NCBI GenBank assembly: GCA_963817895.1
Contig: CAWFQB010000014.1
Location: 448,001-512,000 of the forward strand
DNA length: 64,000 nt
Source: an uncultured Chthonomonadaceae bacterium
Lineage (GTDB): Bacteria; Armatimonadota; Chthonomonadetes; Chthonomonadales; Chthonomonadaceae
Direction: 5' to 3'
Shown here: one piece after another, positions 1 through 34,429 of the stretch
How positions within the stretch are numbered: the stretch's first letter is position 1
Layout of the letters: each line of letters begins with the position of its first letter
Program-made: the position numbers and the translations under genes
Notes under the pieces: generated by a model
What the model was told of the DNA's origin: nothing
Databases searched by the model: none
The model's input: the letters and a program-made list of their open reading frames with translations, nothing else

Positions 1-2828
1 ATTCCCCGGACCCAACGTGAAATACCGCCGAGCCGGCTTCCATGCGCGCAAAGGAGACGCCGGACGCCTTCCGGGCCACTGCGCTTCCCTCCTGTACATC
101 CTGTTCCCGGCGCGGCGGGAACATACACCGTAGCGGAGGTGTTGGGAGGCACAACAATGCTTAGATACAGGACGCCTCCCTGCTTGCGCCACTCACTGAT
201 CGCCAGTCCGCGTACACTGCGATAGCTGCCCCGCGCCCAGGTGAGGTCGCCGACTATGCGCGGTTGAATGCGAATCTTGTCGAAGCCGACTGCGTCCGGT
301 TCCACGCAGATGCCCGCCAGTGACTTCTGAAACCAGGCGCTGATGGAACCGAACATCGGGTGATTGTGGGAGAATGTATTGTCGCTGAACTCCCAATGCT
401 CCCACAGCGTTGTGGCTCCATTTGCCAGCATCCATCCCCAGCCCGGAAACGTCTGCTGGCTCGCGACGGTATAAGCCACGTCTGCGTGTCCTCCTTCGCT
501 GAGGGCGCTGAGCAGGGCCGGCGTGCCGAAGATGCCTGTAGTCAGATGGCCTCCATGCGTTTGCGCAACGTCCTGCGCCAGCACCTCCATAGCCGCCGCT
601 TCTTCTGATGGAGGCACGAGACCATACTGGAGGGCCATCGCCTGGCACGCCTGGGTTGCCGTGTCGTAGCGCCCCGTTCCCGCCACAAGGAATCTCTGGT
701 TGAACGCAACGGCGATCGTTGCCGCCTCCTGCGCATAGTCATGAGCGTCCAGCCTGTCGTCCCAACGCCCGCGCCATTTTCTCCAGCAGGCGCGCATTGT
801 AGTAGTAGAAGGCGGTGCCGGTCAGCGCTGTGGGCTTGGCGACGAGGCTCTCGTGATCGCTGATGCCGTTGTCCAGAATGTGATCCACGGCCTTTGACGG
901 AGCAGGGCAAACCAGTGCTGCCCTTCGGGTACTGCTCCCGCAGCGTTTTGCGGTCGCCATACATTACATAGCGCTGCCAGACGAGCTGAGGATGCGCCGT
1001 GCCCCACTCCACCGGTCCCGCGCCTTCTCCCAGACCCGCGTCCGCAATGCCTACAAACGGCGACGGTTTCGGTAAAACCTCCATTCGGCCGCGCGGAGTC
1101 CGCCAGGTCCAGCATAGACTTCTCGTAGAAACGCGCCATGTCGAAGTTGAGCATCGCTGTTTCGCTGGTCGCCACAATATCGCCGCCATAGCCGAATTTC
1201 TCACGGTGCGGACAGTCGGACTGGACACTGAACAGATTGCTCAGAAACGTGTTTTCTACCATCGTCTGAATGCGCGTGAGCATCGGGTTGGAACAGGCGA
1301 AGTCACCGACTTTCTCTACATCGGCGTTCAGCCCGATGCCTTCGACAGCGTCTTTTGGAGGTATGCCCGGATAGCCGGTCACTTCGACGTAGCGGAAGCC
1401 GTGAAAGGTGAAGCGGGGCGTATAAATTTCGAGCGTTTTTCCTTTACAGACATACGTGTCGGCCTGCCATGCTGTCGCGGGAGCCTGTGATCCTGCCTCG
1501 ACCCTGCGCCCTTTAATCTGCCCGGTCACAGAGGTCAGCGGGTTGAGGGTACCGTCGGGATTCAGCAATTCCCCATAGCGCAGCGTCACGCGCGTTCCAG
1601 GCATACCCTCAACCACTCGCAGGCGCGCCCAACCCGCAAAGTTTTGTCCCAGATCGAAAAGGTACACGTCGGGGCGGGGCTGTGTCCTTGCGCGCGCGAG
1701 AAAGCGGCGCGTGGCGCGAATGGGTGGGGAAATCTGGGCGGACAGACTGCCGATGGGTTCCCGCGCAGGCACAGCGTACTTCCAGATCTCTTCGTCAAAG
1801 CCGGGGCGGTCCCAGTCCGGCTGTTCCCGGCGCGCATCGTAAGCCTCGCCCAGATAGACGCTGTTCTTGCGGATTGGACCGTCATGCGTCTTCCACGTCG
1901 TGTCCGTTACGAGGGTCTGGCGTGTGCCATCTGTATACGTAATCTCCAATTGCAGGAGGGCGCGCGGCGCGCCGATGGCGAGATGCTCGCGCAGGTTGAG
2001 ATGGCCCCACATCCGCAGGGGAAGTGGATCATACCAGCCGTTGCCCAACACGATCCCCACCGCGTTTTGACCCTGTTGCAGCGCAGACGTGACATCATAG
2101 GTGGCGTATAGCACCCGTTGCGAATAGGCCGTCCAGCCCGGATCAAGGACATGATCGCCCACTTTGCGGCCGTTGAGGGTAAGCTCATAGTAGCCTAGCC
2201 CACTAACATACGCCCGGGCGTATCGGATGGGTTTGCCGACGCGGAACTCCTTGCGCAGCAGGGGAGCGGGAGTATCACCGAAGTATGCCTCCTCGGTTGG
2301 CGGGGGCGGCACATCCTGTCGTATCCACTGCGCGCGCCAATCAGAGGGATGGAGCAGCCCCATCTCCCAGAAAGCGGAACCTGCTGTGGAGGAGGGCCTC
2401 CCTTGCCCATCCCACACCTGTACGCTCCACCAGACGCGCTGCCCGGAGTGCAGGGGACGCCCATTATATTCCACGCCTACAGTCTGTGTGGAGGCTATTC
2501 GTCCGCTGTCCCACAGGTCGGCCAGGCCGGTTTGCAGCCGCTCCGCGCTGCTGGCAACCCGAAGGCGATAGGCGCTCTGACGCAGCCCCCGCGCATGGGG
2601 CGCAACAGCCTTTAACTCCCAACTCAACCGTGGATGGGCAGTGTCTACACCTATGGGAGCATCCGCATACTCGCAACGCAGCCGAACGGCCTTCATAGCG
2701 CAGGGAACTACGCTTACACCCTCCTTATGGGCCGGTTGCGCTCTGGCCGCGAGCAGCGTGCCGCGTGAAAGGATCAACAGACCACTCACGAGCCATGTAT
2801 ACCAGATCATGGAACAGTTTTCTCTCAC
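1..2828 (-). CDS. Alpha-L-rhamnosidase (GH78), frameshifted; C-terminus runs to the window edge
   Basis: ORF 822..2828 has GH78 motifs (LYATYDVT, DLGQNFAGW, PRFTFHGFRYVEV, SDCPHREKFGYGGD). Homology continues in other frames (739..960; GATTLWEHW...SHNHPMFG near 350-430). Confidence 0.9.
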
Positions 2829-2921
2829 TACGTAAACCTCTGTGCGCCGTATGATCCGGCAATATATTTCCTGTCAGGCCTTTCAAGCAACCCCGGATTA
2901 CTATAACCTGACTGCTCGCTA

Positions 2922-4663
2922 TTACAGGAGGACACTCACTGCGGCGATTGGCGTACGACTATTGGGACATAGCCGATCGTCCATTCCCGGCGGCGGCTGA
3001 ACCAGAAGCGCCGGGTCAAGCATCGCGACCGTTCCTGTGCCGGGCGGAGGCATGTACTCCTTCCGGGGCGTCCAGGCGGCGTGAATCTTCTCCACAATGG
3101 CCTGCAAACGCTGCTTCTCCGCGCCGCTCAGGTCCGCATCTTGCAGCGCGGGCTGGTCTATGAAGCGGTACCAGTAGTAAGTGACCACACTGCCGTCGGA
3201 AAGCCTGGCCCGGAATGGCCCCGCTTTCGGACCGGGCTTGTGCCAGCAATCATCTCCGGCCTCAGGCGAGGTATAGGATGCGTCTGCAGTGGCCGGAAGG
3301 AACCGCGCCGTCTTCAACCCGGTTGCGTCCGGCACTGCGTCTGCGGCAACGGCTGCCATTTCGTTCCCCTCCTGCTTGAAATACTCTGGGAAAGACCCGC
3401 GCCGAACCTTGCCGGTCCAGGGCGTGAGCGCAGAAGGCTGCCACTGCAAACCGAACGTACTCCTATCAAACGCGACAGTTTCCACCCATTTCTCGAAGTT
3501 GCGAATGGGACGCTTCTCCGCTCCCTGGCGCACGGCAAGGGGACGGGCTTTGCAGGGCGGAACCAGAGCGCCTTTCGCATCGAATTTGCCGGAGGGTGCG
3601 GCTTCCCCCGGCCAGCCAGCGCTCCACCTGCCGATACAAGCGCGTCTTTGGAGTAGTGCGTCAGATTGTGGATGAGGATGGTGCGGCCCTCCTTATCCAC
3701 CGGGAATTGCAGACGCGGGATACGGGTATAGGTCACTGCCGTCCGCATCCTGACTGAGGAAACGCGGCACGGTATTGATCTCGATAGCGCCGCCGGTCAC
3801 CAGACCCGGTCGGGTGTCCAGTCCCCGCGCAATGGCGGGCGGGTGCTGCCGGGAGATACGGCTCCAGGTGACGGGCGTGTAAAACGCCACCGGCCCTTTG
3901 AAGTTCTTGGAATTGAGGAAAAGCGTCCAGCACTGGTTGCCGGTGGGAATGGGCAGGCCGGCGGTCGTGGATTTCGGCTTCGGTCAGCGGCAGCGCCATC
4001 CAGGCATAGCCCAGGAGGTCGCCGCAGGTTCCGTTCCGAAACGTCAGGCCGTCCGGCGGAACCAGCAGGCGCGGGCTGAGTTGCGCAATGCCCATCTGGT
4101 CCGGCTGGAGCGCTTTGGTATTCCCGAATCCCCATCCCGGCGACGATATCTCGTGGTTGTAGCCATTGGCCGTGCCGTTCATGCGGAACTTGGCCGTCGT
4201 CAGCTCCAAAATGGGTACTGCCCCAGAAGCCCAGCCCGCCTTCGATGGTCTGGAAGACATCGCGGTAGCTGGGGCCGCGTTCCGGCCAGTTGTCGCGGGC
4301 CACCGTGCCCCTGGGCAGCAGCGGAGTGTTGATCTTGCGGTTCTCCGGCACGATCCAGATGGAGGCAAGGCCGATCTGAAAGTCGCGCAGGGGCCGCTCC
4401 ACCAGAGGCCAGGCGGTGGCGTAAAGGCTGACGCCGTACCCATACTCCTCCGGCGGGGCCGGAACCTCCATGCTGATATAGCCCGCCAGCCCTTCCGAAA
4501 CGAGCTGTGGCGTTGGCAAGGCCGGGGATGGCGTCTGAAGTTCCTGATTGAAATTTTCCACAGGAGGCAACCCTTTTTGGGATTTTGCTCTCTCCTCCGC
4601 ATGAACAAAGAGAGCGCTGCTGCCGAGCAGACAGACCAAAAGTGTACGTTGTCGAACGCGCAT
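2922..4663 (-). CDS. Secreted conserved hypothetical protein split over about 4 frames
   Basis: Signal-peptide-like start (MRVRQRTLLVCLLGSSALFVHA). ORFs 3797..4663, 3733..4743, 3693..3890, 3314..3748 and 2922..3533 overlap and read as one protein with indels. Confidence 0.6.
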
Positions 4664-4714
4664 GTGTTTTGTTCCTTAGAGAAGGATACCGCCCAAAGTG
4701 TCTTGGTCCGGGTG

Positions 4715-5063
4715 TCAACGGATTTGCCGTTCAATTCCGGCAAAGAGGGTCTTTAGCTATGCCAATCGTGCAGCGTCGAGACAGGGACGCCGCGACCGCG
4801 CGAAGATTTTCCCGCAACCGCTCCTCACTGTGAAAGCCCACACAGCAGGCACTGATCTCCTGCGCCAGAACAAAGCGCAGCGCGGCTTCAGGGATGCTGT
4901 AAGGCTGGAGAAAATCCAGGAGCGTTGGGGTGTCGTATGGTGGGACAACGGGAAGATTGCCGTCCGCGATGTGGCGACGAATACATTCTAAAGCGGCATT
5001 CACATGCATAAAAGTCTCTGACGAAAGTGCGGGCGTTTCGTAATGCAGCATTTGGCCTCTCAA
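4715..5063 (-). pseudogene. 3' fragment of an aldo/keto reductase-like gene
   Basis: SIPEAALRFVLAQEISACCVGFHSEERLRENL resembles the AKR C-terminal cofactor-binding segment; no N-terminal part is present. Confidence 0.55.
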
Positions 5064-5136
5064 CTTGTGATAATGCTCGAATAGGCGGTCAGCCGAGGAT
5101 TTCCTACAGACTGCCGCAATATCTGTTCTCAGGACA

Positions 5137-8100
5137 TTATTGCTTGTTTGCGCCCCCGCTAAGGGTACTGCCAGACTGCACCTTATACGCCCCTTGGGTA
5201 TTGCGGGTCAGGTCACAGCGCCATGCCTCGGCAACGCTCTGATCGTCCGCCAAAATCCCGGCAAGTTGATTGCCATTGAGGGTGCAATCCCGCAGTTCGG
5301 CGCGGCCGGAATGGAGAGCGATTCCTGCGCCGCCGTTACTGTACAGGGGGCTTTTCTCCACGGTTGCATGGCCGCCACTTCCAATCCAGATGCCGTCGCG
5401 CGTATTATGATGCGCCTGGCAGCGTTGAATAGTCCCATTGGCTTTGTCGCTGACGCTGATGCCCACCGCTGCATTGCCGAAGACAAAACAATCCTGGAGG
5501 CTGCACACGCTGTTCGCGCCTATCTTGACGCCATCCTCCTTGTTATTGAATACCTGACAGTGATAAAACTCCCCTTTACCGCCGTCTATTACGCTTACGC
5601 CGGTCCACCCGTTTGTGCCGATGTCACAGTCTCTTACGATTCCGTAGCCGCCGCGTCCGATCCAGATGCCGTGATGCTGATTGTTCTGCGCCCGGCAACG
5701 CAGTATGGTTGCCGTCGCGTTATCGCCAACGCCCACGCCTGCCGACACATTGCCAACCAGGATACAATCCTGCAGGCTGCCCGTGCTGTTCATGCCCAGC
5801 CACACGCCATTCTCCTGATTGTTCAAAACCTGACAGCGATAAAGGGTCAGTTTACCGCCATCTACGATGTTTGCGCCTTTCTCCCCGTTCTTGCCGATGT
5901 CGCAGTTTTCAGCAACGATCTGGCCCTCCTGGGTCGCCGTAATCCCCTGATGCGCGCCATCATGAATTTTGCAGCGTCGTAATAAAATGGAACCGCTGGC
6001 CCGCGCGAGTACATTTGCGGAGGGACTGCCGGAGAGGTCGCAGTCCTCGAATTGCGCCCTCGCATGGGCGATCACGAGGACGCCTTCCTCTTTGCAGTCG
6101 TGAACCCAACACTTCGTCGCGAAAACATCGGTTTTCTCGCCGGACGCGATCAACCCCGCCCCCGTCTCGGAACTGAGAGCGCAGTTGAACAGGGTCAAAC
6201 GTCCTGACGTAATTCCTGCCGCAGGGACGGGCTTGCCCGCAGGCGCGCCTTGAACGCGCAGAATGATTCCACGCAGTGTCACATCCGCCTCCTGCACGAA
6301 GACGCACGGGCTGCCTGTTGCCTCGATACGCACTTCTCCCGCCGGATTGTTGCTCGTCAATTCCACAGACTTATCAAGTACGAGGCTCTCTTTGTAAATT
6401 CCCGGATCAATAAAAATGCGCGTCCCGGCAGGAACATTGCGGATGGCTTCGGTAATGGAAGCGAACTGTCCCTCGCCATTCTTGCTTACCGTGATGTGGG
6501 GCGCAAGATAGACTCCCAGAGCTAAACGCGCCGTAACTTCCTCTTGCGCCTGCTCCCAGGCGTCCCGCTTGATCTGGCCTCCCGGCGTTTGCAGCACCGC
6601 CAGCAAAGGCGCAAGGGAGGCGTTGTCTTGCAGCCGCGCCTGAAGGAGTTCAGGGCTGACTCCCATCTCCGCCGCCGCCTGCATCAAATTAAGCGGCGCA
6701 TCGTATTTTGTCGCGAGGGCGACGATGGGTTCCGCGCTGCCGATTTCCGCGCCCGTCGCGTGGATGCCGGCAGCATAACGCTTATTGTCCCCTTCCATCA
6801 GGGCGGCAAGGCGCGAAGGTTCCACATACAGCCCCAATGCCCGGTCGCGGTCGTAGTCCGGGGTCGGGGTTTTCTCAATCACAGCGCGCACCTGATCCTG
6901 GAAGCGTCTGAGTCCCTGCGTGTGACAGGTCATGCACGTCAGTCCATTGCGGACAACCGGGTCGCTTGCGTTCTCCTTGTTGGTGACGATTTCCACCGGC
7001 CCCGCGTTGATTCGTTCTCCATTGCTGTTGACAAGCATATAGCCCTGCAATCCATTGGGCAGGTTGAAGATGATTTCCCCGCCCGCCACATCAAAGAAGA
7101 TTGGATTCTGAAAGATGTTTTGCTTGCCCACGCTGGAACTAAAATCATACGAGCGCCAGTAGGCTCCAAATGCGGCGTCATGCCGCTCCACAATGCGATT
7201 GTTGCGTGACACGCCGCTCTCGCCAAATCCGGCGCGTCGAGCGTTTCCTTGCCGAATATTCCTGTTCGCATCGATCCCCAACTTCGCCTCAAGCTCGAAG
7301 ACGGTGCGCGGCAAGCCCAACAGTGCGTGATAGAGTAAGGGTTGTCCAGCGCGCGCCACAAACCAATCGGCGCGCGCGCACAGCATTTCACAATCGGTAG
7401 CGGCGCGAACGCTCTGCCCGACGGCGGTTTGAGCGACAACGGCATAAGGATAGAGCGTGACCAGTTTGCGCCAGGTGTCCGCCGTCCAGGAATAGTGGCG
7501 TATATCAATGCGCAGAATAGTCTGGGCGGCATCTACGGGCTGCGGCACGGCAATGCGTTTCTGCCACGACAGACTGTTGAGGAGTTTGGACAGGGCAAGG
7601 CTATACGCATGGAGAGCGTCGTCGCTGACGCCGGCATTATAGAGATGGGTAAGGGTAAAATAGCGCGTGTATTGCCGGTCAGGTTCCTTGATTCCGTCGA
7701 TGATCTGCCCTGATAGCCGTATAAGTGGTTTCGGTAGAAATGAACTTGCGCGAACCGGAGGTAGACTTTCCGATGCCTTCCGCACCCGCTTCGATCCAGG
7801 CTTTGAGAGTTGCTTTCTCGTCCGACGTAAGAGCGTCCTGTCGGCTTTTGGGCGGCATTGGGTCATTGGGGGAGAGAACGGCGCGGATGTAGATGCGCGA
7901 ATGTGCCGGGTCGCCGGGCTTAATCTGGTTTTTGGCTAGCATCGCAACGCGATCATTGATGTCAAACCCGGCGGTGGCATCCGCGCCGTGACATTTGCTG
8001 CAATGCGTGGTAAAGATCGCCTGCGCCTTTTGCGGCAGTTCGGAAGTATTTTGGGCGCCAGCATCCTGTCGGCTGTCAACAAGGACAAGCAGCGTCAGGA

Positions 8101-8152
8101 AGAGAGCGAGACCAACCCGGATGGATAAATGGAGGGGCAACATGGTTTTCAA
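5137..8152 (-). CDS. Secreted planctomycete-type cytochrome c + second heme domain + right-handed beta-helix protein (frameshift near 7700)
   Basis: 7679..8152 has a signal peptide, CSKCH and MPP...LT..EK..LKAWI. 5137..7866 continues with CMTCH and a long parallel beta-helix repeat region. Confidence 0.75.
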
Positions 8153-8270
8153 TTTAACATCCCCTTGTTAACGAGGCTTACGCGCCGAAACAACTTTTCT
8201 AAATTCCTACTCTTGCATCGAACAGCAACCTGGCCGCTTTTCGTAAGTGATTAAGAGCATACAGACCTGG

Positions 8271-8586
8271 ACGAAATCAGCGTTCCGGTAGTAGGGGCGC
8301 TGATTTCGTTTCCATAGATAGGATCGTTTGCAATAGTCTATACGTCACAGGCTTTGTACGCCTGTTCCAGCGCGGCGACCGCATCGCGTTTGGGTGTGAA
8401 TTCCTGTCCCACATAACCGTCGTACTCCGTGGCGGCAATGGCGCGGCAGATGGCGGGATAGTAGAGTTCCTGGTTCTCGTCGAGTTCGTTGCAGCCCGGA
8501 TTGCCTGCCGTGTGGAAATGCCCGATGTAGTCTATGTTGTCGCGCAGGGTGCGGATCACATCGCCCTCCCCTTTTTACATGCCTAC
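8271..8586 (-). repeat. Displaced hyi 3' end, copy A, with downstream hairpin
   Basis: Encodes [75 protein letters not shown], nearly identical to the C-terminus of 18846..19604. Confidence 0.95.
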
Positions 8587-8866
8587 AATGCTCTTGCGGA
8601 CAACAAACCGTGGCGCAACACCCTAAAGCTTAGTGATTCGGTTCTTGAACTCAAGGATTAAGGCTTTCTTTGCCGGCAAGGCGCATGCCGACAAGATGCG
8701 AGGCTCCTCTTGACGTAAGATCATCCATGTCCGACTCCCAGCACTTGCGGTCTGCCGTACAAACCTTGACTATTTGATGTCAGGTAGGTTTCTGCTTGGG
8801 GTAGAATTTCAGATACGAGATGACAAGGCTGGCCTCCCTTAGTTCCAGTTCAGTCTCCTGATTGCT

Positions 8867-10259
8867 TCAACGCGCCACCAGTTCTGGCAACTGTTTCTCG
8901 GCGATTCCGATCTGCCGATCCAGCGGAATGCCCGCACATGTCAGCAGCGTGCCAAGCAGATCGCCCTGGTTACCTTTGACATCGGGGAGATAACATCCGG
9001 TCTTGAGCGATCCGCCGCCTTTACCGGCGATGATAAACGGCAGGTTCTCCCTGGTATGTTTGTTTCCGTCTTCCAGGCCTGATCCCCACATCAAGATGCA
9101 ATTGTCGAGTAGTGTGCCGCTGCCTTCCTTCAAGCCGGCCATCTTCTTCACCATGTAGGCAAATTGAGCCACGTTGAAAGCGTTGATCTTGGTGACCTTG
9201 TCGAGCATCACGGGATTGTTGTTGTGGTGCGTCTGGGAGTGATGCTCGTCACTGAAGCCAAGCTCCGGGTACGACACGCCGTTTGGTGTCGACCCGATGT
9301 AAGTACTCACACGGGTGAGATCGCACTGGAACGCCAGCACGTTGAGGTCGCACATTACCTCCATGTACTCGCTCCGTTTGTCGCCCGTGGGGATTTTGAC
9401 CTCAATCGGCACCGAACGGGCGGCGACCGTGTTGGAGGGGGCGACGTTGGCCTTTGCCAGAGAACTCTCTTTCTGCCGCGCCTGGATTGCCGCGATTCGT
9501 CGTTCCACAGCGCGCACACTGTCGAGATACTCGTCCAGCTTCTGCTGGTCGTCACGGCTCAGTTTTCCGCGTAGTTCCTTTGCACCGCCCAAAACCAGGT
9601 CGAGCATCGAACGGTCCAGTGGGTCATAAGAGGTCTTACTCGCGGGACCGAAGCCTGTCTCACGGCATTGGAACAATCGCTTGAGAACGCTGGCGGGATC
9701 TATCTCGGCCGGCATCGGCTGGCGAGGCCCGCGGAAACTGCAGTGCGAGTAATACGCTTCGTGCAGCCCTTCCTGGTGCTCCATGTGTGTTTGAGGCATC
9801 GTCGCCAGTTCCAGCGACGGCATGAGGAGTGAACGCGCCGACATAGTTCGCGGCGATCTGGTCGGCAGAGGTGGCGATGTTCACGACTGCCCTGCTTTTG
9901 CGAATCCGGCAAGGTTGCCGTCAGCCAGGTGGAGAGTTCCAGAGCGTGGGGCGCGCCGTTGAACGGCGCGATGGGCACGCCGCTGATCCCCTTCACCAGT
10001 AGGCACTGATCGAGTACGCCACGCAGCGGCTCCAGGATCGGTGGTGGCGACTTCAAGAACCCGGCGGAATCCGTTGGCCAGAATCGCTCGGGGATCACAC
10101 CGTGCGGCATGTACATGAAACCAAGCCGTACCGGTGGTTTCGACGCGGCGGGCGACTTCCGACCATCCGCCCAGCCCATCGTTTCCAGCAGAGGCAACGA
10201 AAGCGATACACCAAGCCACTCAGACAGGTTCGGCGACTGATAAGAACGTTACTTCGCAT
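8867..10259 (-). CDS. DUF1552 family protein (frameshifted)
   Basis: SRR-containing leader, [47 protein letters not shown]...GNKH..ENLP; lies downstream of a DUF1592 gene. Confidence 0.85.
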
Positions 10260-12198
10260 TTTGGGTCTCTCCTGTATTGGTCACGCGACGATGGGTAAAG
10301 GGATCACTGGTCACCACGCTAAGTACGAGCGTCTGCATCCGATAGTCATCTTTCTTGATCGAGTCTGTCATTTCATCTACTACGATCTCATCATACCCTT
10401 CCAGCTGCCGACCAAGTGCATACGCCAGCAGTTTGCCGGTGAGATTTCGGCAGAAATCATCCTTTCGGTCGGCTATGATCCGCTTGAGTTCCGCAGGGGT
10501 GGTGAAATGGAGTCCTCCCGGCAGTTCGCCGGAGGCATCGATCTTACCGGCGGAATCATCTACAGTTCGCCAGCGACCGATCGCATCGAAATTCTCCAAC
10601 CCGAAACCGATCGGGTCGAGCACCTTGTGGCAGCTCGCGCAAACGGCGTTCGAACGATGTAGCTCCGTGCGCTGTCGCAGCGTCATGTTCGCTATTACCA
10701 GTTTGTCCTGCTTCTCCAGCGTAGGCACATTGGGTGGGGGCGGAGGCACATGTTCGCCAAGTACCTGCTCCAGCACCCAGACGCCACGATTCACAGGGCT
10801 GGTGCGGTTTGGAAATGAGCTATTTGCGAGAATACCAGGCATTGTAAGGATGCCGCCGCGGTTGGAATTCGTCAGAGTTACACGTCGCATCTGCTCGCCG
10901 CGAACGGTCCCCTCCATCCCATAGATAGTCGCCAAGCTCTCGTTGAGGTAGGTGGAGTTGCTATCGATTAAGGTTGTCAATTTGAGGTTATTACGAAGGA
11001 CCTCTTGAAAAAACAGGCGGGCCTCGTCGTACATTGCCAATCGCATTTTCCCCGTCATCTGAGGAAACTTCTCGGTGTCGAACATCTTGCCCTCAAGCTT
11101 GTCCACGCCGAGCCACTGTGCCCCAAATCCATCGAACAGCGCCCGCGACCGCGGATCTTTTAAGAGCCGTCGGGCTTGGGCTGCGAGTACCTCGGTGTTC
11201 TGTAGTTTCCCAGAGTCTGCCAGTGCGGACAACTCGCCGTCGGGCATCGTCGCCCACAGCAGATACGAAAGGCGTGACGCCAGTTGATAATCGTCCAGAG
11301 GGACCATCTCCTGTGACACCGTCGTATTGCCGCTGCTATTCGCTTTGACGGGCGTGATAAACAAGAACTGCGGTGACACCAGGGTCGCCTTGACCATCAA
11401 TCGCAGCGCTTCGGGATAGGGTTTGCCGTTCTGTCTCGCCAACGAGAAAACTCGCATCAGGACATCCACTTCCGCATCCGAAGCGGGCCGACGAAACGCG
11501 AGACGAGCCAGTGATCGGGCAACTTTCCGCGCTGCCGCCGTGGGATCCACTCCTTTATCCGGCAACTCGCCGAGCAACCTCCGCTGCACTGCTGTCGGCT
11601 TTGATCCGGGGGGTGAAAATGACTTGTCCAGAACATTATTCGCTATTGAAAGGTATTTCTCGATCAGTAGTGGCGAGAGTGTGTTGGTGTATCCCGCGCC
11701 GACTACCTCATCTGGCAGCTCTCGTGCAATCGCAGGATCGACACCGAATATATCATGAAGGGTGTTGCCATATTCCCGCTTGTTCAATCGTCGAATGACA
11801 AACAAGCCAGGATCCTTCGGCACACGTTTCTTCATTCCTGCTACCCATTCGATGACCGCCCTGCGTTCCTTTTCGCTCGGTTGCCTACTCTCATTCGCCG
11901 GTGGCATGTCATGAGCCGCGATCTGGGTCGACGCTCGCTTCCACAGCATCTGGAACGCCAGCCCGTTCGGATTCTTTTGTAAATCTTGGAATGTCACACC
12001 TCCGCTCCGCCTGTTGTCTGTATGGCAACGCAGGCAGTAGGTCTCCATGAACGGTGAGACCTCGTTCTTAAAGGTTTTGGCCGCTTCGGTGCGTGCCCGG
12101 ATTAAAGCCGCGGCATCATTCTTCGATGAGTCGTCCGCGCACAGCGCTGTCGGCAGCGCCAGCAGCAAGGCGGTGAGGAGTGTTATGGTGTGTTTCAC
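10249..12198 (-). CDS. DUF1587/1595/1592/1588/1585 multidomain protein with heme-binding motifs
   Basis: CLRCH, RRLNKREYGNTLHD, LASRLSYLLWATMPD, RTSPVNRGVWVL, CASCH..LDPIGFGLENFDAIGRWR. Probable GTG start at 12198 followed by a signal peptide. Confidence 0.9.
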   Translation of the reverse strand: MKHTITLLTALLLALPTALCADDSSKNDAAALIRARTEAAKTFKNEVSPFMETYCLRCHTDNRRSGGVTFQDLQKNPNGLAFQMLWKRASTQIAAHDMPPANESRQPSEKERRAVIEWVAGMKKRVPKDPGLFVIRRLNKREYGNTLHDIFGVDPAIARELPDEVVGAGYTNTLSPLLIEKYLSIANNVLDKSFSPPGSKPTAVQRRLLGELPDKGVDPTAAARKVARSLARLAFRRPASDAEVDVLMRVFSLARQNGKPYPEALRLMVKATLVSPQFLFITPVKANSSGNTTVSQEMVPLDDYQLASRLSYLLWATMPDGELSALADSGKLQNTEVLAAQARRLLKDPRSRALFDGFGAQWLGVDKLEGKMFDTEKFPQMTGKMRLAMYDEARLFFQEVLRNNLKLTTLIDSNSTYLNESLATIYGMEGTVRGEQMRRVTLTNSNRGGILTMPGILANSSFPNRTSPVNRGVWVLEQVLGEHVPPPPPNVPTLEKQDKLVIANMTLRQRTELHRSNAVCASCHKVLDPIGFGLENFDAIGRWRTVDDSAGKIDASGELPGGLHFTTPAELKRIIADRKDDFCRNLTGKLLAYALGRQLEGYDEIVVDEMTDSIKKDDYRMQTLVLSVVTSDPFTHRRVTNTGETQNAK

Positions 12199-12322
12199 AT
12201 TCAGTTCCTTCAGTTGAGTGTTTGCAGACCAAGGTTTTACGCCTCTTCCCAAGGCGCCCTGAGCTTCGGTTTCGCGGTGAGGAACTCGAGGCAGCGGCGC
12301 AGCTTGCCTTCCTTTAACCTGC

Positions 12323-12637
12323 ACGAAATCAGCGTCCCTACCACCGGAACGCTGATTTCATTTCCATAGATAGGATCGTTTGCAATAATCTATACGTCAC
12401 AGGCCTTGTACGCCTGCTCCAGTGCGGCGACGGGATCACCCTTCGGCGTGAATTCCTGCCCGATGTAGCCGTCGTAGCCGGTTGCGGCGATGGCGCAGCA
12501 GATGGCAGGGTAGTAGAGTTCCTGGTTCTCGTCGAGTTCGTTGCGGCCCGGATTGCTGGCCATGTGGAAGTATCCGGGTGTTCGGTGTTGTTATGCAATG
12601 TTCTGATTACGTCGCCGTCCCTTTTTTACATGCATAC
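12323..12637 (-). repeat. Displaced hyi 3' end, copy B (frameshifted), with downstream hairpin
   Basis: Aligns along its length with 8271..8586 and with 18846..19090; encodes ...[54 protein letters not shown]. Confidence 0.95.
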
Positions 12638-12665
12638 CAGGCAAGGACATGACTTATTAGATGAA

Positions 12666-15600
12666 TCAGCCAAAATAAAGGAGATCAGGCAATTTCTCCG
12701 TTAGGTTAATGAACCATTGCTCACCACGTACAGCGGTGAAATCAGAATCATTTTCTACATGCTTCTTCCCCATGTGCGGCAAACTAGGCAGCGCGAGATG
12801 CAACTCACTTCGGCATTGCTCTGCCTCACCCTTGCGGGCGTAGCAGCAGGCAAGATCATAGTGTGCGCCTGCAATTACCTGAGCGTCATACCAGGGCATT
12901 GTCAAGCACGTTTGCAGAACCTCTTGTGCCCGTTCGAGGTGGTTTAGCTGAAGTAGAATTTCGCCCCGTGTAGCATTCAAACGAACATTGCGTGGCATAC
13001 AGGCAATCTGTGCGTCGATTTCTTTGAGAGCCGATGTAAGTAGTTCCTCCTTACCCGGTTCCTGTATGTGTTGATGCCAACCATTCATTACGTTCTTGCA
13101 TGATCCGCTCGACAGCAGCTTCTGAACGGCTGCCTGTTCTCGCATCCAGCCCGAAACATACTCCGCTTGATTTGAGCGCAGACTCGCAATTGAAAGCGCA
13201 GGCGGGAAGTACCATGTTTCGGCAGCAACGCCATGTCCATTAACAATACTGCCGTTTTCCAGCCAATGATGCCGATCATGCACCCAGCCAATGCCACTGC
13301 ATATCCATTTTTCACAATCGGCGGCAGTGAAAGAAGGAGTATGCTGGAAAGCCCGGACGATATCTATTGCCACGCGATGCGATTGGCTGAGTAGATCGCT
13401 CTCAAACTCCAATGTGGGAACCTCAACCTTATCCGTGTCGCAGAAGGCGCTTAGGGTTGTGTATACGCCCTGATACTCATGCTTCAAGCGTGAAGCAGGC
13501 AGCCCGCGTATAGCTGTCAGCGCTTGATCACACACGCAGCGGCAATCTCGCAAGGACAATGCAACCGGTGAGAACATGGCGCGCAAGGTATGGCTGAGTA
13601 GAACCGCGCGCCAGTCCGTAGCGTCACATGCCCATTCCCATAATATAGGCACAGCATTCTCTTTGTTGACATGCGCGTGGAGCGTTTCCAGAATGGTTTC
13701 GGGCGCGCGGCGGATGTCCGCTTCCAGACTGCTTAACCTGGCCTCCGTCCCCAAGCTTCGGTTAGCCAGTAGTTCCGCGTAAGCAGGCGGAAGCAAGGCA
13801 GCCTCGCGCAGCGCATACAAGAACAGATCACGGTCACGAGAGATATTTCCCTCAACATTGATATGCTTCGCACAAACGTCACCAGCCTGTTCGATGATCT
13901 CCGGCGTGATACGCCTGGTGTGTACAAGCGCAGTGCAGAAACGCAACAAAGGCCAATCCGGGGGCAGTGCGGCTACAATAGCTGCGGGATTGTCCACGTA
14001 AGGCGCGCAAGCGCACAGCCAATCTGTCGCCAAGTTCGTTACCCTAAACTGCCATTCGGATGGACTTCCATCAGCAGGATGAATGTTGTATTCTGCGTCT
14101 TCTCTAGCTGTCTGGCATAACAATCTGTACCAATCTGTAAATAGTGAATGGGTGGCTATTTGACTCGCGAAGCGTCCACAAGTTTCCAGTGTCTGCACAT
14201 ACAGGAAATTATGGTTTGTTTCCAATGCGAGATGGTGAAAAATCATCGGTGCCTCGGCTGCCGCAGCGGACATGCCTCCGATGTCCAAAGCGATCCGCGC
14301 AAGAACCGCAACAGACGCACTGTAGGCAGCAAAAGCCCTGTTCTTATTTTGAATGTCCTCGTATAATGGCCCAGATAACTCTTCCAGCACACTTCTCGCA
14401 TGAGCATCATGGGGAACTTGGCTGGCGTACTGCCACCATGTGAAAGCTAACAACTCATTGAGCAAGGTTCGCGCGGAGCCGAAAGCTGTGTCAAGCCTGC
14501 CGGGGAGCATATTACCAACAAGGGCTGGACGGATACAAGCAATGTGTGCCAACAGTGTCAACGCAATGCCACACGCCCTTGTGTGCAGCATATTGCCCTT
14601 CTGTATAGCCTCAATTACAGATTCGGGATCACTTTCTGTGTAAAAGTACAGTAATCGAGACACGTCACCAACAACAGCTTGCTCCGTACCTGCCTGATGA
14701 AAGACAACTTCCTTGATATGCTCGGGGCGTCCCTCGGCGACGGGCAACAAGGCACGTGCAGCGGCTTGACGTGTCCAGAGGTTCTCATCACCAAGTTCCT
14801 GTACCAACACGGGAATGTCTGCTCCATTTCCAAACAGCGCCACGCGCCCCCGGATTGCATCAATCTCATAGCCCAAGGTTTCACGCACGTCCATGCGTTC
14901 GGGTTTGCGTGGCGACACGTAACGGCTTTGAAACCAGGCAAGAATCCAGTGTGCAGTTGCAGCAGCCTCAGCATGGCTGACAGCTTGCAAAGGCTGAAGT
15001 GCGCCACTCAGGTAACGTGCTTGCTCTCTGTTTTCGGAACTCATCATGAAGCCAGAGGGTCGCTGTAGATCGCGCCTCAGTCGCAGCAGCATTCGTCGCT
15101 TGACCCAAGAAGGAGCAATCTCCAGAGCAGCGCTCAAGGCAAATTGGCCTTTTAGAGCCTGCGTTTCTTTCTCGTCCGCATACAGTGTTCCAATCCAAGC
15201 GCGGGCGTAACTGGAATGTCCCGCCATAGCCCCCAAAGCGCGCATGGCGTTCCATGTGGAATAAGTTTCGTCACGATTAGACCAGGCGGTTAGCATAGCT
15301 GGAATACGCCAGTCGTCTCCCTGACGCTGCGCCAACCCCTGCGCCAGAGCGCTTAACCAACGAGAATCGCACTCCAGAACATGTCCAGCCCATTTCACTG
15401 CATCCGGTTCCACTGTTTCGATAGCCTGACGCACCAGTGCTGTCATTATGCCGTCGTCCAGCCCTGGCTCCATTTCAGCAAGCACATCTTCGTTCTGCGA
15501 CATGCGACCGGCCAGCCAAAGTGCCGTCAGTCGGTCGCCGAATTGTGGATTGGCATACACAACAGCACCCACCGGAGCCTTAATGTCTGCTGTGCGCGTG

Positions 15601-17786
15601 AGGATATCCTCAGATTGCAGGGCGGGCAGGACTTTCCGCCCAAATCCGGCAAGAACACCATCTATGGATTGAACAAGCTCTCCAGAGGGCTTTCCTACTC
15701 GACGGGCATGCCACATTTCAGCCGCCAGCAGCTTACTGAGATCATCAATTTCGTCTGGTTCACAGGCGGAGCGACGTGCAACTTCGTTGAAACGATATTG
15801 AGCTTCCTCATCTAACAGCACATCAACATCGACAGCTACTGGTGTTTTGACGTTGCCGCCGGAGAGATACTGGCGGATGTAAATCTTCAACAAATATGGA
15901 TTACGCAATGCTGCAAACGCGGAGTGTCGTAGTGCAAGGGCGATTTTGTCTACATCGGAAGAAGCGGGAAGCCGACATACAAGCATAGCTTGCATTTCAC
16001 TATCGGATAATCGGGTAAGTTCGTAAGAGTATAACCGAGACTTGTCCAGCTTGTTTGTCTTATCTGTATTGTCCGGCTTGTCTGTGTTATCTGTCTGTTC
16101 CGGCGTGATTACATGCCGGAACAGGTAAGGCGCAAGGCGCTTGCCCTGCGACAGTCGTTGCCAAACGCCGGATCGGACGGACAGCGCCAGCTTTATGCCT
16201 CGATGTTGCGCTTCTTGACACAGAACTTCTAGTTTATCTTCAAAGGCAGCGGGATCGCTTGAAAGTAGAACCTCATCGGCAATAAGAACAAACGTCTCAT
16301 GTAATGTATCCGACGCTATACCCTTTAGCTGCTGGAATAATTCCTCTGCCGTCGCGTCCGGACGTGTCACGCCGGATAGTGATTCACGGATTAGATCAAC
16401 CAAGGAGCGGCATTGTTCAAGTTGAGTTCCGCGTATCAGCAAGCGTACACTGTTATTGAGTCTCTCTGCGGCTTCGGCATAACATTCCCACGACTTGCCA
16501 CAGCCGCTATTGCCAATAAGGACAAACAGAGGGCGGTCACTTTTTCGGAATTCCTCAAAAGTGGCGGCAAGATCAGACCGAGAAACATACAATTCAGCCC
16601 GCCAGTCACTCGGCAGTGAGCGTTCCACCTGTTGCTGACATGCCTGAAGAGCATCATCGAGAGGAGGTTTGCGCACCATTGACGTTCCTGAATCCGAGAT
16701 GGCATTCGCTTCTTCGTTGCAGGGCAGCTCCGAAGGAGTGAAAACCTGTGTTACGGCCTCTCTTTTCACAGGCTGAATCAATTCAGGGAAAAAGTTAGGG
16801 TTTTCCAAGCAAAATCGCAACAGACTTACGGATGCGGCAGCAGCTTTTTTCTGCCAACCGTCACCTTTGCCTACACCCCAGTCGCAGATGCCTTTGGCGA
16901 ATAGAAACCATGCCTGCCCCTCTCGCTCCTTGTTGGAGTAGGAGAGCACGCTGGTTCCTAATCCATGCCCTTCCATATCCAGCCCGATAGCGTCCTTGTA
17001 TTCCGCACGGAGTTCCTCGCGTCGGTTGAAGTGATTAAGAAGTTCGTCCCCCGAAATGACCAGTCCACTATGAACACGGCAGCGGCGAGAACCGTAGTCC
17101 GCCTCGGGTGCTGTCTGCTGCCACTCTTTCGCATGTTCAAGTAAAAGATTAAGACGGTCACGGTTGGCAGCAAACCGCCCGCCTCGATTCTCAGTGCGGT
17201 CTACTTTGGTTGCCCGAAAATTATGTTGCCACAGACTGGAAGCAACCAAGATGTCACCTATTTGCTGGGTGGAGGCTGAATCATCCGTCTCAGGAGTCAT
17301 ATACTTCGGCAAGACTATCGTCTTATTTTTGGTTTTCAAGGTTGCACGAAGCAACTCCGCAATATGTAATGGCAGTTCGCTCTGGTTGCTCGGGCTGAAG
17401 TACTTTTCTAATTCTTCGCAGGCAATGGTGGTTTTATCAGAGGCGCTTCTTTTAAGGCCACACGCGATGCCAGGCATAAGTACATAAAAGGATTGTGAAC
17501 CACCAGTCCCTCGCAGTTCTGCGAGTGCAGCAGTGATCTCTGTCGCTGCATTCATACCAGCCTGTCCGCACATCAAATGAGCCGCCAGGTACTTGCCGAA
17601 GTAACCGAAGCGGTACTGCTGGTAAAGTGGAATTATCTCCTCTACGAATGGTTCAGCGTCAAGTACCACGTTGACGGCATCTGCCTCTACCTGCATGGCC
17701 GTTACAATTAGAACGTTGACCCTCTGCCTCAGTTCGTCAAACTCTTTTTTGCTGATTGATCGAGTCATTGTGCTTGTCCCTGACAA
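12666..17786 (-). CDS. NLR-like (Avs/STAND-type) protein: PNP/MTA-nucleosidase effector + P-loop NTPase + helical/TPR C-terminus
   Basis: PNP motifs (LIVTAMQVE, MPGIACG, IGDILVAS, GLDMEG, KGICDWG); Walker A GNSGCGKS; Walker B FVLIADE; terminal TPR (YDLACCYAR...NDSDF). Confidence 0.85.
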   Translation of the reverse strand: MSGTSTMTRSISKKEFDELRQRVNVLIVTAMQVEADAVNVVLDAEPFVEEIIPLYQQYRFGYFGKYLAAHLMCGQAGMNAATEITAALAELRGTGGSQSFYVLMPGIACGLKRSASDKTTIACEELEKYFSPSNQSELPLHIAELLRATLKTKNKTIVLPKYMTPETDDSASTQQIGDILVASSLWQHNFRATKVDRTENRGGRFAANRDRLNLLLEHAKEWQQTAPEADYGSRRCRVHSGLVISGDELLNHFNRREELRAEYKDAIGLDMEGHGLGTSVLSYSNKEREGQAWFLFAKGICDWGVGKGDGWQKKAAAASVSLLRFCLENPNFFPELIQPVKREAVTQVFTPSELPCNEEANAISDSGTSMVRKPPLDDALQACQQQVERSLPSDWRAELYVSRSDLAATFEEFRKSDRPLFVLIGNSGCGKSWECYAEAAERLNNSVRLLIRGTQLEQCRSLVDLIRESLSGVTRPDATAEELFQQLKGIASDTLHETFVLIADEVLLSSDPAAFEDKLEVLCQEAQHRGIKLALSVRSGVWQRLSQGKRLAPYLFRHVITPEQTDNTDKPDNTDKTNKLDKSRLYSYELTRLSDSEMQAMLVCRLPASSDVDKIALALRHSAFAALRNPYLLKIYIRQYLSGGNVKTPVAVDVDVLLDEEAQYRFNEVARRSACEPDEIDDLSKLLAAEMWHARRVGKPSGELVQSIDGVLAGFGRKVLPALQSEDILTRTADIKAPVGAVVYANPQFGDRLTALWLAGRMSQNEDVLAEMEPGLDDGIMTALVRQAIETVEPDAVKWAGHVLECDSRWLSALAQGLAQRQGDDWRIPAMLTAWSNRDETYSTWNAMRALGAMAGHSSYARAWIGTLYADEKETQALKGQFALSAALEIAPSWVKRRMLLRLRRDLQRPSGFMMSSENREQARYLSGALQPLQAVSHAEAAATAHWILAWFQSRYVSPRKPERMDVRETLGYEIDAIRGRVALFGNGADIPVLVQELGDENLWTRQAAARALLPVAEGRPEHIKEVVFHQAGTEQAVVGDVSRLLYFYTESDPESVIEAIQKGNMLHTRACGIALTLLAHIACIRPALVGNMLPGRLDTAFGSARTLLNELLAFTWWQYASQVPHDAHARSVLEELSGPLYEDIQNKNRAFAAYSASVAVLARIALDIGGMSAAAAEAPMIFHHLALETNHNFLYVQTLETCGRFASQIATHSLFTDWYRLLCQTAREDAEYNIHPADGSPSEWQFRVTNLATDWLCACAPYVDNPAAIVAALPPDWPLLRFCTALVHTRRITPEIIEQAGDVCAKHINVEGNISRDRDLFLYALREAALLPPAYAELLANRSLGTEARLSSLEADIRRAPETILETLHAHVNKENAVPILWEWACDATDWRAVLLSHTLRAMFSPVALSLRDCRCVCDQALTAIRGLPASRLKHEYQGVYTTLSAFCDTDKVEVPTLEFESDLLSQSHRVAIDIVRAFQHTPSFTAADCEKWICSGIGWVHDRHHWLENGSIVNGHGVAAETWYFPPALSIASLRSNQAEYVSGWMREQAAVQKLLSSGSCKNVMNGWHQHIQEPGKEELLTSALKEIDAQIACMPRNVRLNATRGEILLQLNHLERAQEVLQTCLTMPWYDAQVIAGAHYDLACCYARKGEAEQCRSELHLALPSLPHMGKKHVENDSDFTAVRGEQWFINLTEKLPDLLYFG

Positions 17787-17862
17787 TTATGTTCGTACCA
17801 CATAGCCTATGGGCGAGTGAATGAAATATTAATCCGCATCTTGTTTGCGTATAAACCTGCAA

Positions 17863-18501
17863 TCAGTCCTTCGATTTTGCAATGTCCCGTAACAGTTTTA
17901 TGCGCGTATCCATCCGTTCTCGAAGGTCGTCGAACGTCATACAGCTCACTTTGTTCGCGTTGATGGAAACCTTCTGCGTACGCCAATGAAGCCGTTCTCG
18001 CATTGTATTGTCAAGGTATTTACTTCGCCCAATGAGCAGCAATCCTGAAAAACTGTGCAGTTCGCCGCCAAAGCGCTTGCGGAAATCAATGTTGCCCCGG
18101 TACATATCAAGCGCCCAAAACCAGTCTATTAATTGTGAGTAGCCGTGTTCAAAGCGGCGTCCCCACTCATCATGGTATTTGTCCCCACTGCCGAAAACGC
18201 TATAACGACGCGCATCTTCTATTTCCACCAGTACGAATTCGCCACTCTGCGAATGCCCCGCCGCCCAATCGCAGCGGAAGTTGCCGAAGAGATCAAGTTC
18301 AAACCCGAACAAATCTATCTCCTCGATACGCAGGTTCCAGGAGGCGGCAAATGTGGCAAGATGAGGCCGTGACCCAAAGAAAGGCAACAGGTCGTTCTTT
18401 TCCGAAAGTTCATCCTTGCTGTCCAGAAGCGCGCCGAATTCTGCAAGTTCCTGCTCGCACTGGTCAAGCGAAAACTGAAACTTCGAGAGTTCCTTGCTCA
18501 T
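17863..18501 (-). CDS. Shedu-like (DUF4263) anti-phage nuclease
   Basis: E-L-D-L..FRCDW...FVLVEIEDA...FEHGYSQLIDW...LLIGRS...MTFDDL matches the DUF4263 PD-(D/E)xK pattern. Confidence 0.8.
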   Translation of the reverse strand: MSKELSKFQFSLDQCEQELAEFGALLDSKDELSEKNDLLPFFGSRPHLATFAASWNLRIEEIDLFGFELDLFGNFRCDWAAGHSQSGEFVLVEIEDARRYSVFGSGDKYHDEWGRRFEHGYSQLIDWFWALDMYRGNIDFRKRFGGELHSFSGLLLIGRSKYLDNTMRERLHWRTQKVSINANKVSCMTFDDLRERMDTRIKLLRDIAKSKD

Positions 18502-18770
18502 CCATATCTCTCAGCGAAGCGCCTGTTGAGTATGTCCAGGACAGTGATACTGTCTTGACCAACAGTAAACGCTACCAGCAAATCATTTCCAGTCCGAAGC
18601 ACATATGTGGGGTTCTCCTCCGTTATGTCCTTAAGTCGGGCAATGTTGGGGTCCGACAACCCACATTCGGCCAGCATGTGAATGCGGGTGAGTACGCGAT
18701 TGCGCTCTTCTGAATCCAGAGAACTGAGCGCATCTTCAGCTTGTGGATAATAGTGTATGGAATATGACAT
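18498..18770 (-). CDS. RelE/ParE-fold protein with no adjacent antitoxin
   Basis: YSIHYYPQAEDALSSL...YVLRTGNDLLVAF...ITVLDILNR has RelE-like spacing; its stop overlaps the Shedu start. Confidence 0.6.
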   Translation of the reverse strand: MSYSIHYYPQAEDALSSLDSEERNRVLTRIHMLAECGLSDPNIARLKDITEENPTYVLRTGNDLLVAFTVGQDSITVLDILNRRFAERYG

Positions 18771-18807
18771 TGTTTTACTTTCCAAGAACGTTCCCTGCCC
18801 TCGATTC

Positions 18808-18816
18808 ATTATACCA
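18808..18816 (-). promoter_or_regulatory. Extended -10 promoter (TGGTATAAT) for the defence cassette
   Basis: Minus-strand TGgTATAAT lies between the hyi stop and the RelE-like start, inside a CTGCCC/GGGCAG inverted repeat. Confidence 0.5.
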
Positions 18817-18845
18817 TTTCGGGCAGAGAGGTTTGTTCACATCCT

Positions 18846-19604
18846 TTACACGTCACATGCCTCGTAAGCCTGCTCCAATGCTGCAACCGGTTCGCCCTTT
18901 GGCGTGAACTCCTGCCCCACATAGCCGTCGTAAGCGGTGGCGGCAATGGCGCGGCAGATGGCGGGATAGTAGAGTTCCTGGTTCTCGTCGAGTTCGTTGC
19001 GCCCCGGATTGCCTGCCGTGTGGAAATGCCCGATGTATTCGATGTTGTCGCGCAGGGTACGAATGACATCGCCCTCCATGATTTGCATGTGGTAGATGTC
19101 GTACAGCACTTTTACGCGGGGCGAGTTGACCAGTTTGCACACGTCCACGCCCCAGGCAGTGTGGTCGCACTGGTAATCGGGATGATTCACTTTGCTGTTG
19201 AGCAGTTCCAGCACGAGGGTAACGCCCGCCTGCTCTGCAGCCTTCGCCACCCGGCTTAACCCTTCCGCCGTATGCTCAATCCCCGCCGCGTCGGGCAGGC
19301 CGTTGCGGTTGCCGCTGAACACGATCAGGGCGGGAATGTGCCACTTCACGGCGAGTTCCAGATTGGCGTTGAGTTCCGATTCGATGCGGTCATGGTTTTC
19401 GCGCCGGTTCAGGCCGTCGCCGAGCGACTTATGCCCGCCCATTGTGATGATCTGCAAACCGCCATCGGTAATCTGCGGCCACAAATCTTCCGGGGCCATC
19501 TCCACGCCCGCGTAGCCAATACGCTTCGATTCTTTGATAAGGGTTTCCGCGCCCACCTTGTTCGCCAGCGCCCACCACGCGAGCGATTGCTTGATTGCTG
19601 CCAT
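18846..19604 (-). CDS. hyi: Hydroxypyruvate isomerase family TIM-barrel protein
   Basis: LVLELLNSKVNHPDY, KVLYDIYHMQIMEGD, HFHTAGNPGRNE, GYVGQEF. Confidence 0.88.
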   Translation of the reverse strand: MAAIKQSLAWWALANKVGAETLIKESKRIGYAGVEMAPEDLWPQITDGGLQIITMGGHKSLGDGLNRRENHDRIESELNANLELAVKWHIPALIVFSGNRNGLPDAAGIEHTAEGLSRVAKAAEQAGVTLVLELLNSKVNHPDYQCDHTAWGVDVCKLVNSPRVKVLYDIYHMQIMEGDVIRTLRDNIEYIGHFHTAGNPGRNELDENQELYYPAICRAIAATAYDGYVGQEFTPKGEPVAALEQAYEACDV

Positions 19605-23793: not shown

Positions 23794-23820
23794 AACCTCA
23801 CTCTTTCGCCTGATAGTAAC

Positions 23821-23877
23821 TTCCGCTTTGAAGTCGCCGGAATGGAGGCAGAGCGAACCTCTACAAGGTTATGCCCG
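23821..23877 (-). promoter_or_regulatory. Conserved upstream block of subtilase A (possible structured RNA)
   Basis: Highly similar to 26082..26137; GAGGT/GCCTC stem whose loop is complementary to downstream AGCGG. Confidence 0.5.
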
Positions 23878-23953
23878 GTTTGCGCGTGTTTTCGACCAGT
23901 TATAATTGCGGGATAATGTAAAGACGAGAAACGTAATTACTGAACAAGCATAT

Positions 23954-23997
23954 CTATCCGGTAAGCCGCCTAAAGTTACAGGCGGCTTACCGGATAG
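23954..23997. terminator. 18-bp perfect hairpin between the two subtilase genes
   Basis: ctatccggtaagccgcct-N8-aggcggcttaccggatag. Confidence 0.65.
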
Positions 23998-34385: not shown

Positions 34386-34429
34386 GATGTATTCTTTTCC
34401 ACGAGATTACAATTTATTTGCGCAAAGGG

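Follow-up and report, generated by a model that had tools for sequence, protein, structure and literature searches.

A 64,000-nucleotide stretch from an uncultured Chthonomonadaceae bacterium (assembly GCA_963817895.1, contig CAWFQB010000014.1, positions 448,001 to 512,000), here called the window, carries on its reverse strand a hyi-like gene whose 3' end is present three times in direct orientation (18847-19089, 12391-12633 and 8339-8581), with unrelated sets of genes between the copies. An earlier note, made from the sequence alone, had read this layout as an array of cassettes stacked by serial replacement of the hyi 3' end. The threefold repetition was confirmed by alignment and blastn, ungapped identity to the copy at 8339 being 70-86% and blastn identity 80-87% (E 1e-55 to 1e-81). 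The gene itself scores 96.8 bits against TIGR03234, the hydroxypyruvate isomerase equivalog, which has a cut-off of 353, so that the name hyi is appropriate only in the sense of Hyi-like. The genome of the window (81% complete) is referred to as G000 and its contig as C14, other G-numbers denoting the genomes with which it was compared.

The duplicated part consists of the last 76 codons of the Hyi-family gene. The copies had been thought to begin at the codons for HMQIMEGD; a single common junction does exist, but it lies at the GA within the MEGD Glu codon (19076-19075, 12619-12618 and 8568-8567), where the shared core begins, and not at HMQIM. Both displaced copies open with exactly GTAnGCATGTAAAAA, in agreement with the shared non-hyi junction already noticed, and an 18-bp non-hyi arm beginning GTA(T/G)GC sits upstream of each. 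Measured from core to core, the units are 6456 bp (cassette 1) and 4052 bp (cassette 2). Both displaced copies are followed downstream by a tail of 75 nt that is missing from the intact gene; it contains a hairpin (z = -4.3) known from one cassette lineage only. The hairpin loop is inverted between window positions 12325-12359 and 8273-8307 (a micro-inversion), G006 having the orientation of copy 2. Copy 3 retains an open frame with 91% amino acid identity to the gene. In copy 2 one nucleotide is deleted, and several other changes are damaging. The ratio of nonsynonymous to synonymous substitution rates (dN/dS) was 0.071 between gene and copy 3 (76 codons), 0.075 between gene and copy 2, and 0.094 between copies 3 and 2 (the last two over the 59 codons 3' of the gap). 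These values, far from 1, indicate that each copy evolved as a working 3' end, as the earlier note had supposed from the excess of synonymous differences, and that damage came later, most heavily in copy 2; the 1-nt deletion may itself be an error, since the assembly contains indels that other strains lack.

The expected cargo of defence genes and DUF1592/DUF1552 genes was found, with a SduA nuclease domain, a 1706-aa protein and a RelE/ParE-like open reading frame (ORF) in cassette 1, and the DUF genes in cassette 2 (Table 1). The 1706-aa protein is predicted to be a defence sensor-effector. The RelE/ParE-like ORF had no Pfam, PADLOC or NCBIfam match; its Atlas look-alikes reach 0.94 to RelE/ParE-type clusters, with the family on 31% of members, which provides a lead. 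Neither cassette holds recombinase or transfer genes, and no satellite-type integrase, replication or packaging-hijack gene (PICI/P4/PLE) was found among the window cargo. The reported lack of an integrase extends to the whole of C14, where no tyrosine recombinase, resolvase or large serine recombinase (LSR) was matched, and tblastn with seven of the genome's own recombinase segments plus the LSR P0001 described below gave no match in C14:400-520 kb; DDE transposases were not among the enzymes searched for. A fourth, decayed hyi 3' fragment occurs in the same orientation 44 kb downstream, beyond the window (C14:412155-412250), preceded by TIR/TPR-type genes, and the plastic zone may span ~55 kb.

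Table 1. Features of the hyi locus, in window coordinates
Position	Strand	Feature	Basis or remark
18846..19604	-	Intact Hyi-family gene (AP_endonuc_2 TIM barrel), 252 aa, target	Below equivalog cut-off
19052..19099	-	attB-like site: GA core 19076-19075 between a left arm of the host and a host-type right arm (DVIRTL)	Geometry inferred from the G355 site (23+GA+23)
18846..19076	-	Present 3' terminus of hyi (76 codons), likely brought in or remodelled by cassette 1	G056 chimera test
18498..18809	-	RelE/ParE-like small ORF, probable start 18770, cassette 1	Lead: Atlas look-alikes 0.94
17863..18501	-	Stand-alone Shedu SduA nuclease domain, cassette 1	PF14082 E 1.7e-19; PADLOC SduA E 2.8e-66
12666..17786	-	1706-aa nucleosidase-like + weak STAND/AAA + TPR_END protein, cassette 1	STAND/AAA below cut-off
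12618..12637	-	Cassette 1 right end: 18-bp non-hyi arm (GTATGC start) + GA core	
12390..12619	-	Displaced hyi 3' copy 2, 1-nt deletion, decaying	
12317..12389	-	Tail, strong hairpin 12325-12359, near-identical in G006; shared DUF cassette begins	
10249..12324	-	DUF1587/1595/1592/1588/1585 gene, cassette 2	
8867..10220	-	DUF1552 gene, cassette 2; frameshifted in window, open in G006	Indels absent from other strains
8567..8586	-	Cassette 2 right end: 18-bp arm + GA core; G006 identity ends here	
8338..8568	-	Displaced hyi 3' copy 3, open frame	
8265..8337	-	Second tail copy, hairpin 8273-8307, loop inverted	
1..8264	-	Probable further module(s)	Inference; 9.7 kb (to C14:446581) missing here in G002; no closing arm found

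To determine the distribution of such arrays, 42 genomes of the family were surveyed and loci with extra matches were fetched. Fragments consisting of the hyi 3' end only were present in 18 of them, those of G004 and G053 lying at contig ends and possibly representing broken genes. In 11/42 the gene was accompanied, on the same contig and strand, by between one and five displaced copies at core-to-core distances of 0.3-7.1 kb, the largest array, with up to five copies (a count that includes the truncated gene of this genome), being that of G048. Cassette number and content vary among relatives, as the earlier note had asked to be checked, and the junction maps to the same nucleotide in other genomes. 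Elsewhere, a decayed two-copy array was found in G226, from another class, and a displaced 3' copy in one of 80 loci drawn from all prokaryotes, again of Chthonomonadaceae, although several of these loci extended less than 10 kb downstream. Family-wide, the cargo is varied and often of defence type; it includes HEC-01, Septu, PDC-M38, PDC-M28, HNH, PIN, NYN, methylase and Cas3 genes, together with ankyrin, sulfotransferase and DUF genes, and none of the 123 cargo or flank ORFs scanned (205 listed) was a recombinase.

The DUF1592/DUF1552 cassette of the window recurs on two contigs of G006, a member of another genus, at 96% identity over 3257 bp and 94% over 407 bp, whereas the hyi genes of the two genomes are only 72% identical. 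The shared stretch has the same tail at its start and the same arm at its end, and stops at the GA core, cargo being exchanged between genera. In four public runs, contigs from other strains span about 8.35 to 12.86 kb of the window, the gene at 12.9-17.8 kb being hardly covered. Single, low-depth contigs of other strains in runs X1/X4 have joints at 17859/19048 and 18454/19048, where the end of the SduA or the RelE-like gene meets hyi 28 nt past the core; they represent shorter versions of cassette 1 or deletion products, and cassette 1 may be composite.

At many junctions a second fixed sequence, GATGTAATTTCCTGCATAC, stands directly to the right of the core. It ends in the reverse complement of GTATGC and recodes the host DVIRTL as DVISCI. 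The corresponding 19-mer occurred in 10 of the 41 other family genomes (8 genera) and was missing from all 26 genomes taken from the rest of the order; reversed controls gave no match, and 13 of the 14 places of the 19-mer lay within hyi. In the aligned junctions, among which G018 and copy 1 of G054 were mis-anchored, this right arm was present in nine intact genes, belonging to both hyi paralogs, and in five displaced copies; it is absent from the window. Left of the core, homology between unrelated cassettes ends ~20 bp away, and unrelated cassettes of five genera keep GTATGCATGTA, several other displaced copies having hyi-like left arms. G000 and G006 share one arm but differ in the right arm attached to it, the joint lying exactly at the core. 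A spacer pattern search returned five matches, all outside hyi, and a metagenome pattern scan two, neither within hyi. Viral contigs yielded no left-arm match, no retained locus for the hyi C-terminus, no LSR and one right-arm match without hyi; no LSR match was obtained in plasmids, and phages gave one at 22%.

A search for recombinases beside hyi 3' fragments, as proposed in the earlier note, revealed a serine recombinase in G355 and G403. It belongs to the clade of the LSR P0001, which served as the query. P0001 matches PF00239 and PF07508 above cut-off and has a YVRVS motif, its zinc ribbon scoring 21 bits (cut-off 25.3); full-length homologs are 655-685 aa long, and no sequence relative was found in the PDB. 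Members of the clade, at 73-74% identity to P0001, were detected in three of 401 genomes of the phylum (G355, G403 and the family member G056), nine others having homologs at 28-36%. In G355 and G403 the LSR gene starts within ~40-130 bp of a displaced hyi 3' end, divergently and pointing into the element. In G056 the C-terminal half lies at a contig end, 4.3 kb behind an arm-bearing hyi, the N-terminal half and the right junction not being assembled. The three genomes share a fixed right arm inside hyi, GATGTAATTTCCT[G/C]CATAC, translated as DVISCI or DVISSI; outside the family the arm pattern matched only G355 and G403, plus G202 with two mismatches. Joining the junctions of G355 rebuilds a 23 + GA + 23 bp site whose two ends carry GTATGC as mirror images, and those of G403 one of 22 + GA + 23. 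The size and layout of LSR attP sites described in the accessible text of PMC3783163 agree with the rebuilt G355 site. The LSR-linked gene of G056 is a chimera: before the site it is of the paralog type (73% versus 44%), and after it of the ortholog type (71% versus 58%), with 90% identity to the ortholog of its own genome, and thus shows directly that 3' ends are delivered by the element. Genes for a Replic_Relax relaxase and a TrwB-type coupling protein lie beside the LSR in G403, and a ParA gene follows the left junction in G355, so that the autonomous forms resemble integrative and mobilisable elements (IMEs). A search for Replic_Relax in G000 was negative, the positive control giving no signal in that search.

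The favoured interpretation, to which a probability of about 0.7 is assigned, is that the hyi-like gene is the attachment (att) site of one LSR clade and that the window cassettes are stacked integrase-less passengers. Comparative sequence evidence for an LSR att site with accreted integrase-less cassettes is strong, and the earlier suggestion of an att site in hyi with a gene-restoring 3' replacement gains support from the common junction, the LSR adjacency, the chimera and the low dN/dS. The LSR would be carried by mobilisable integrative elements of the phylum, a visiting or since-lost one being the putative source of the enzyme for the window. Strand exchange would take place at the GA dinucleotide, where an incoming circle crosses into hyi; insertion would re-complete the gene with the incoming end and push the old end downstream, and repetition would stack the units. 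The cassettes would have retained only a short att arm and the replacement 3' end. Recombination among the 230-bp repeats would then match the ends to the host and reset the gene to an attB-like state, ready for the next insertion, and conjugative hitch-hiking would provide transfer from cell to cell. Movement of the cassettes may proceed in trans, as the earlier note proposed for satellite-like units, in cis or by homologous recombination.

Several observations weigh against this interpretation. The P0001 query found no cognate LSR in G000 (best 29-32%), nor any in the near-complete G001 (34%) or in G023; as far as an incomplete genome allows the conclusion, the window array is therefore an orphan today. 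Neither an excised circle nor a joint at the GA core was found in contigs of other strains from the public runs. Only two LSR-adjacent junctions are available, and neither in G355 nor in G403 does one contig contain both ends of the element. The GTATGC motif of the cassette arm stands at -18 in 7 of 21 family junctions and at -20 in two, never at the LSR-adjacent position of -23/-22, and the cassette arm is thus not a plain attR. Simple integration should leave the element arm in the gene, yet in the window and in G001, G006, G018, G023 and G048 the right arm is of the host type; the hyi ends of the DUF cassette differ between G000 and G006 (dS 1.45), identity switching near the stop codon; and in the junction tree, which leaves out 7 of 38 rows for degeneracy or truncation, gene and copy cluster according to host and not to cassette. 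Site-specific exchange alone does not explain the host-grouped ends and the differing ends of the DUF unit, and host-matched 3' ends indicate homologous recombination as well; together with the host-type arms, they suggest that recombination between repeats reshapes the ends, which would reset the gene to attB.

These same data raise the question of whether homologous recombination could be sufficient. An LSR would then have founded the first repeat, the present cassettes would have spread by homologous recombination alone as donor fragments flanked by two hyi 3' copies crossed into the hyi end of a recipient, and the 18-bp arm would be an inert scar. The lack of a cognate enzyme in G000, G001 and G023, the host-type arm in most genes ahead of arrays, the start of G000-G006 cassette identity near the stop codon, and the strongly supported sister grouping of gene and copy in G001, G023, G048 and G355 all fit such a scenario. 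It is nonetheless considered unlikely: an inert scar should not be conserved over ~20 bp between unrelated cassettes, nor be kept as GTATGCATGTA in five genera, and hyi ends that diverge by 20-30% between genera are a poor substrate. The joining of one arm to different right arms at the core also speaks against it, although a conversion tract could stop there too.

Action of another recombinase on the 18-bp-arm sites, either a tyrosine recombinase or a resident distant LSR, with the P0001 clade merely sharing the target, is more doubtful still. It would account for the offset of 4-5 bp between cassette and LSR-adjacent arms, and candidate enzymes are available, G000 having nine PF00589 and three PF07508 matches. 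The GTATGC motif and the right arm are, however, the same in both classes, a member of the P0001 clade lies behind hyi within the family itself (G056), and no hyi fragment was found at the fetched loci of the distant LSRs (those of G000 and the other 28-36% homologs). Two LSR genes lie 7 kb apart in G000:C2:158156-166710 (L021, L023, L192), one being an 814-aa frame with a counterpart in G001. Plain segmental duplication with decay, or misassembly, to which nearby assembly indel errors and public runs that cover only other strains might lend weight, is refuted by the comparative data: dN/dS is low, many independent genomes show the same junction and layout, and the cassette occurs in another genus and is covered as a unit in four public runs.

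Under the favoured att-site interpretation, a tentative and rather speculative extension is that the cassettes are dedicated LSR hitch-hikers. Their arm motif is 5 bp nearer the core, and the published shift of the zinc-domain motif from attP to attB, in the accessible text of PMC3783163, is also 5 bp; each cassette might therefore end in a fresh attB-type site. The limit of homology ~20 bp from the core and the joining of one arm to two right arms in G000 and G006 also enter into this view. The autonomous side of the offset comes from just two junctions, both from another class, and attP may equally well differ between lineages. If the extension were true, cassettes could dock into the attP of a helper for conjugative transfer, each array would have a renewable landing pad that overcomes the one-way chemistry of serine integrases, and the whole would amount to a defence array resembling an integron but operated by a serine integrase that visits the cell.

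Among known systems, the hyi array would work most like the accretion of cis-mobilisable elements (CIMEs) or ccr-less composites of the staphylococcal cassette chromosome (SCC). Composite SCC with ccr-less cassettes at rlmH (CcrAB/CcrC), as described in the available part of PMC13739063, likewise involve an LSR, a protein-coding target left intact, a GA core, degenerate inverted half-sites and tandem cassettes, some without a recombinase. The hyi system differs in enzyme clade (P0001 scores 36 bits against a Ccr cut-off of 900, which places it outside SCC), phylum and target, as well as in its crossover 76 codons inside the gene, the 230-bp replacement end of each unit, the recoding element arm and units of 0.3-7 kb. 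CIMEs, treated with accretion of IMEs and integrative and conjugative elements (ICESt1 family) in the accessible text of PMC5704250, have lost integration and transfer genes, keep att sites, lie in tandem and can be moved by an active element. The hyi arrays likewise show units accreted in tandem at a single target; a comparison of cassette flanks with the active element gave a common core and GTATGC, a motif at -18 and not -23, and host-type right arms in the window. According to the same part of PMC5704250, IMEs with site-specific serine recombinases disrupt their target genes, whereas the hyi gene is restored, and the arm spacing of the cassettes differs from that of the autonomous element.

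Islands in icd and guaA restore the gene with their own 3' end; they are tyrosine-integrase elements carrying their own integrase. They share with hyi the long replacement 3' end and the displaced copy, while the hyi system has a serine enzyme and integrase-less units. An array of small, varied, defence-rich cassettes at one entry site recalls integrons, but the integron-like stacking proposed in the earlier note did not hold: there is no IntI-type tyrosine recombinase at the locus (no PF00589 on C14) and no adjacent resident integrase, the entry site is inside a gene, and at the cassette ends, which consist of an arm plus a hyi copy, no attC-type site was recognised, no attC model having been run; the tail hairpin is confined to one cassette lineage. 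Integrative hitchers of six other species were found to be nearly always larger than 4 kb and to have an integrase (10.64898/2026.01.13.699239). LSR target genes are defined as disrupted in the available text of PMC10083194, and under the terms tried the Hyi-family target name was not found in the accessible portions of its text and supplements. A literature search gave no report of hyi as an att site, although the TIGER/Islander databases and bioRxiv supplements, which were outside it, might list the site; by title and abstract start, none of the publications listed for Armatimonadota integrases and genomic islands concerned a hyi system.

Relative to SCC and CIMEs, the hyi system differs in its target, in combining a serine enzyme with a long arm that restores and recodes the gene, and in the small size and defence-rich content of its units. 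For an LSR clade with no sequence relative in the PDB, the analysis defines a target, predicts a 48-bp attP and the dinucleotide of crossover, and names a candidate enzyme; a family-wide hotspot also becomes minable for defence-type genes, both known and unnamed (Shedu, Septu, HEC-01, PDC-M38, HNH, PIN). Serine integration normally means the loss of attB and often a broken target gene; with hyi repaired and arrays of up to five copies, refilling of one site by a one-way enzyme becomes directly testable.

Some minor observations concern other family loci. Fragments of the hyi 5' part near the locus in G017 (L009:5824-6171) and G008 (L012:7940-8146) represent duplication of another kind. The hyi gene of G002 (L002:6133) has an element-type 3' end with a 1-nt frameshift soon after DVISCI, reflecting either an error or an inactivated gene. 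In G004 (L016, contig C115), two hyi 3' fragments at a distance of 6.7 kb enclose type I CRISPR-Cas genes, Cas3 among them, and a BRCT-domain gene with a reverse transcriptase is found directly upstream of a cupin gene and a hyi 3' fragment in G024 (L015:2766-6247, contig C38).

In the window itself, frameshifts in several genes between 822 and 10220 (rhamnosidase, cytochrome c/beta-helix and DUF1552) suggest assembly indel errors. Tandem secreted S8 peptidases at 21904-26047 share 73-77% DNA identity over parts and have C-terminal RA(I/M)WG repeats. An intergenic repeat family resembling miniature inverted-repeat transposable elements or repetitive extragenic palindromes (MITE/REP-like) occupies 29917-30152, 34264-34391, 59580-59716 and 60923-61113; it is composed of 22-26-nt tandem units with inverted arms, and similar repeats are dispersed elsewhere.

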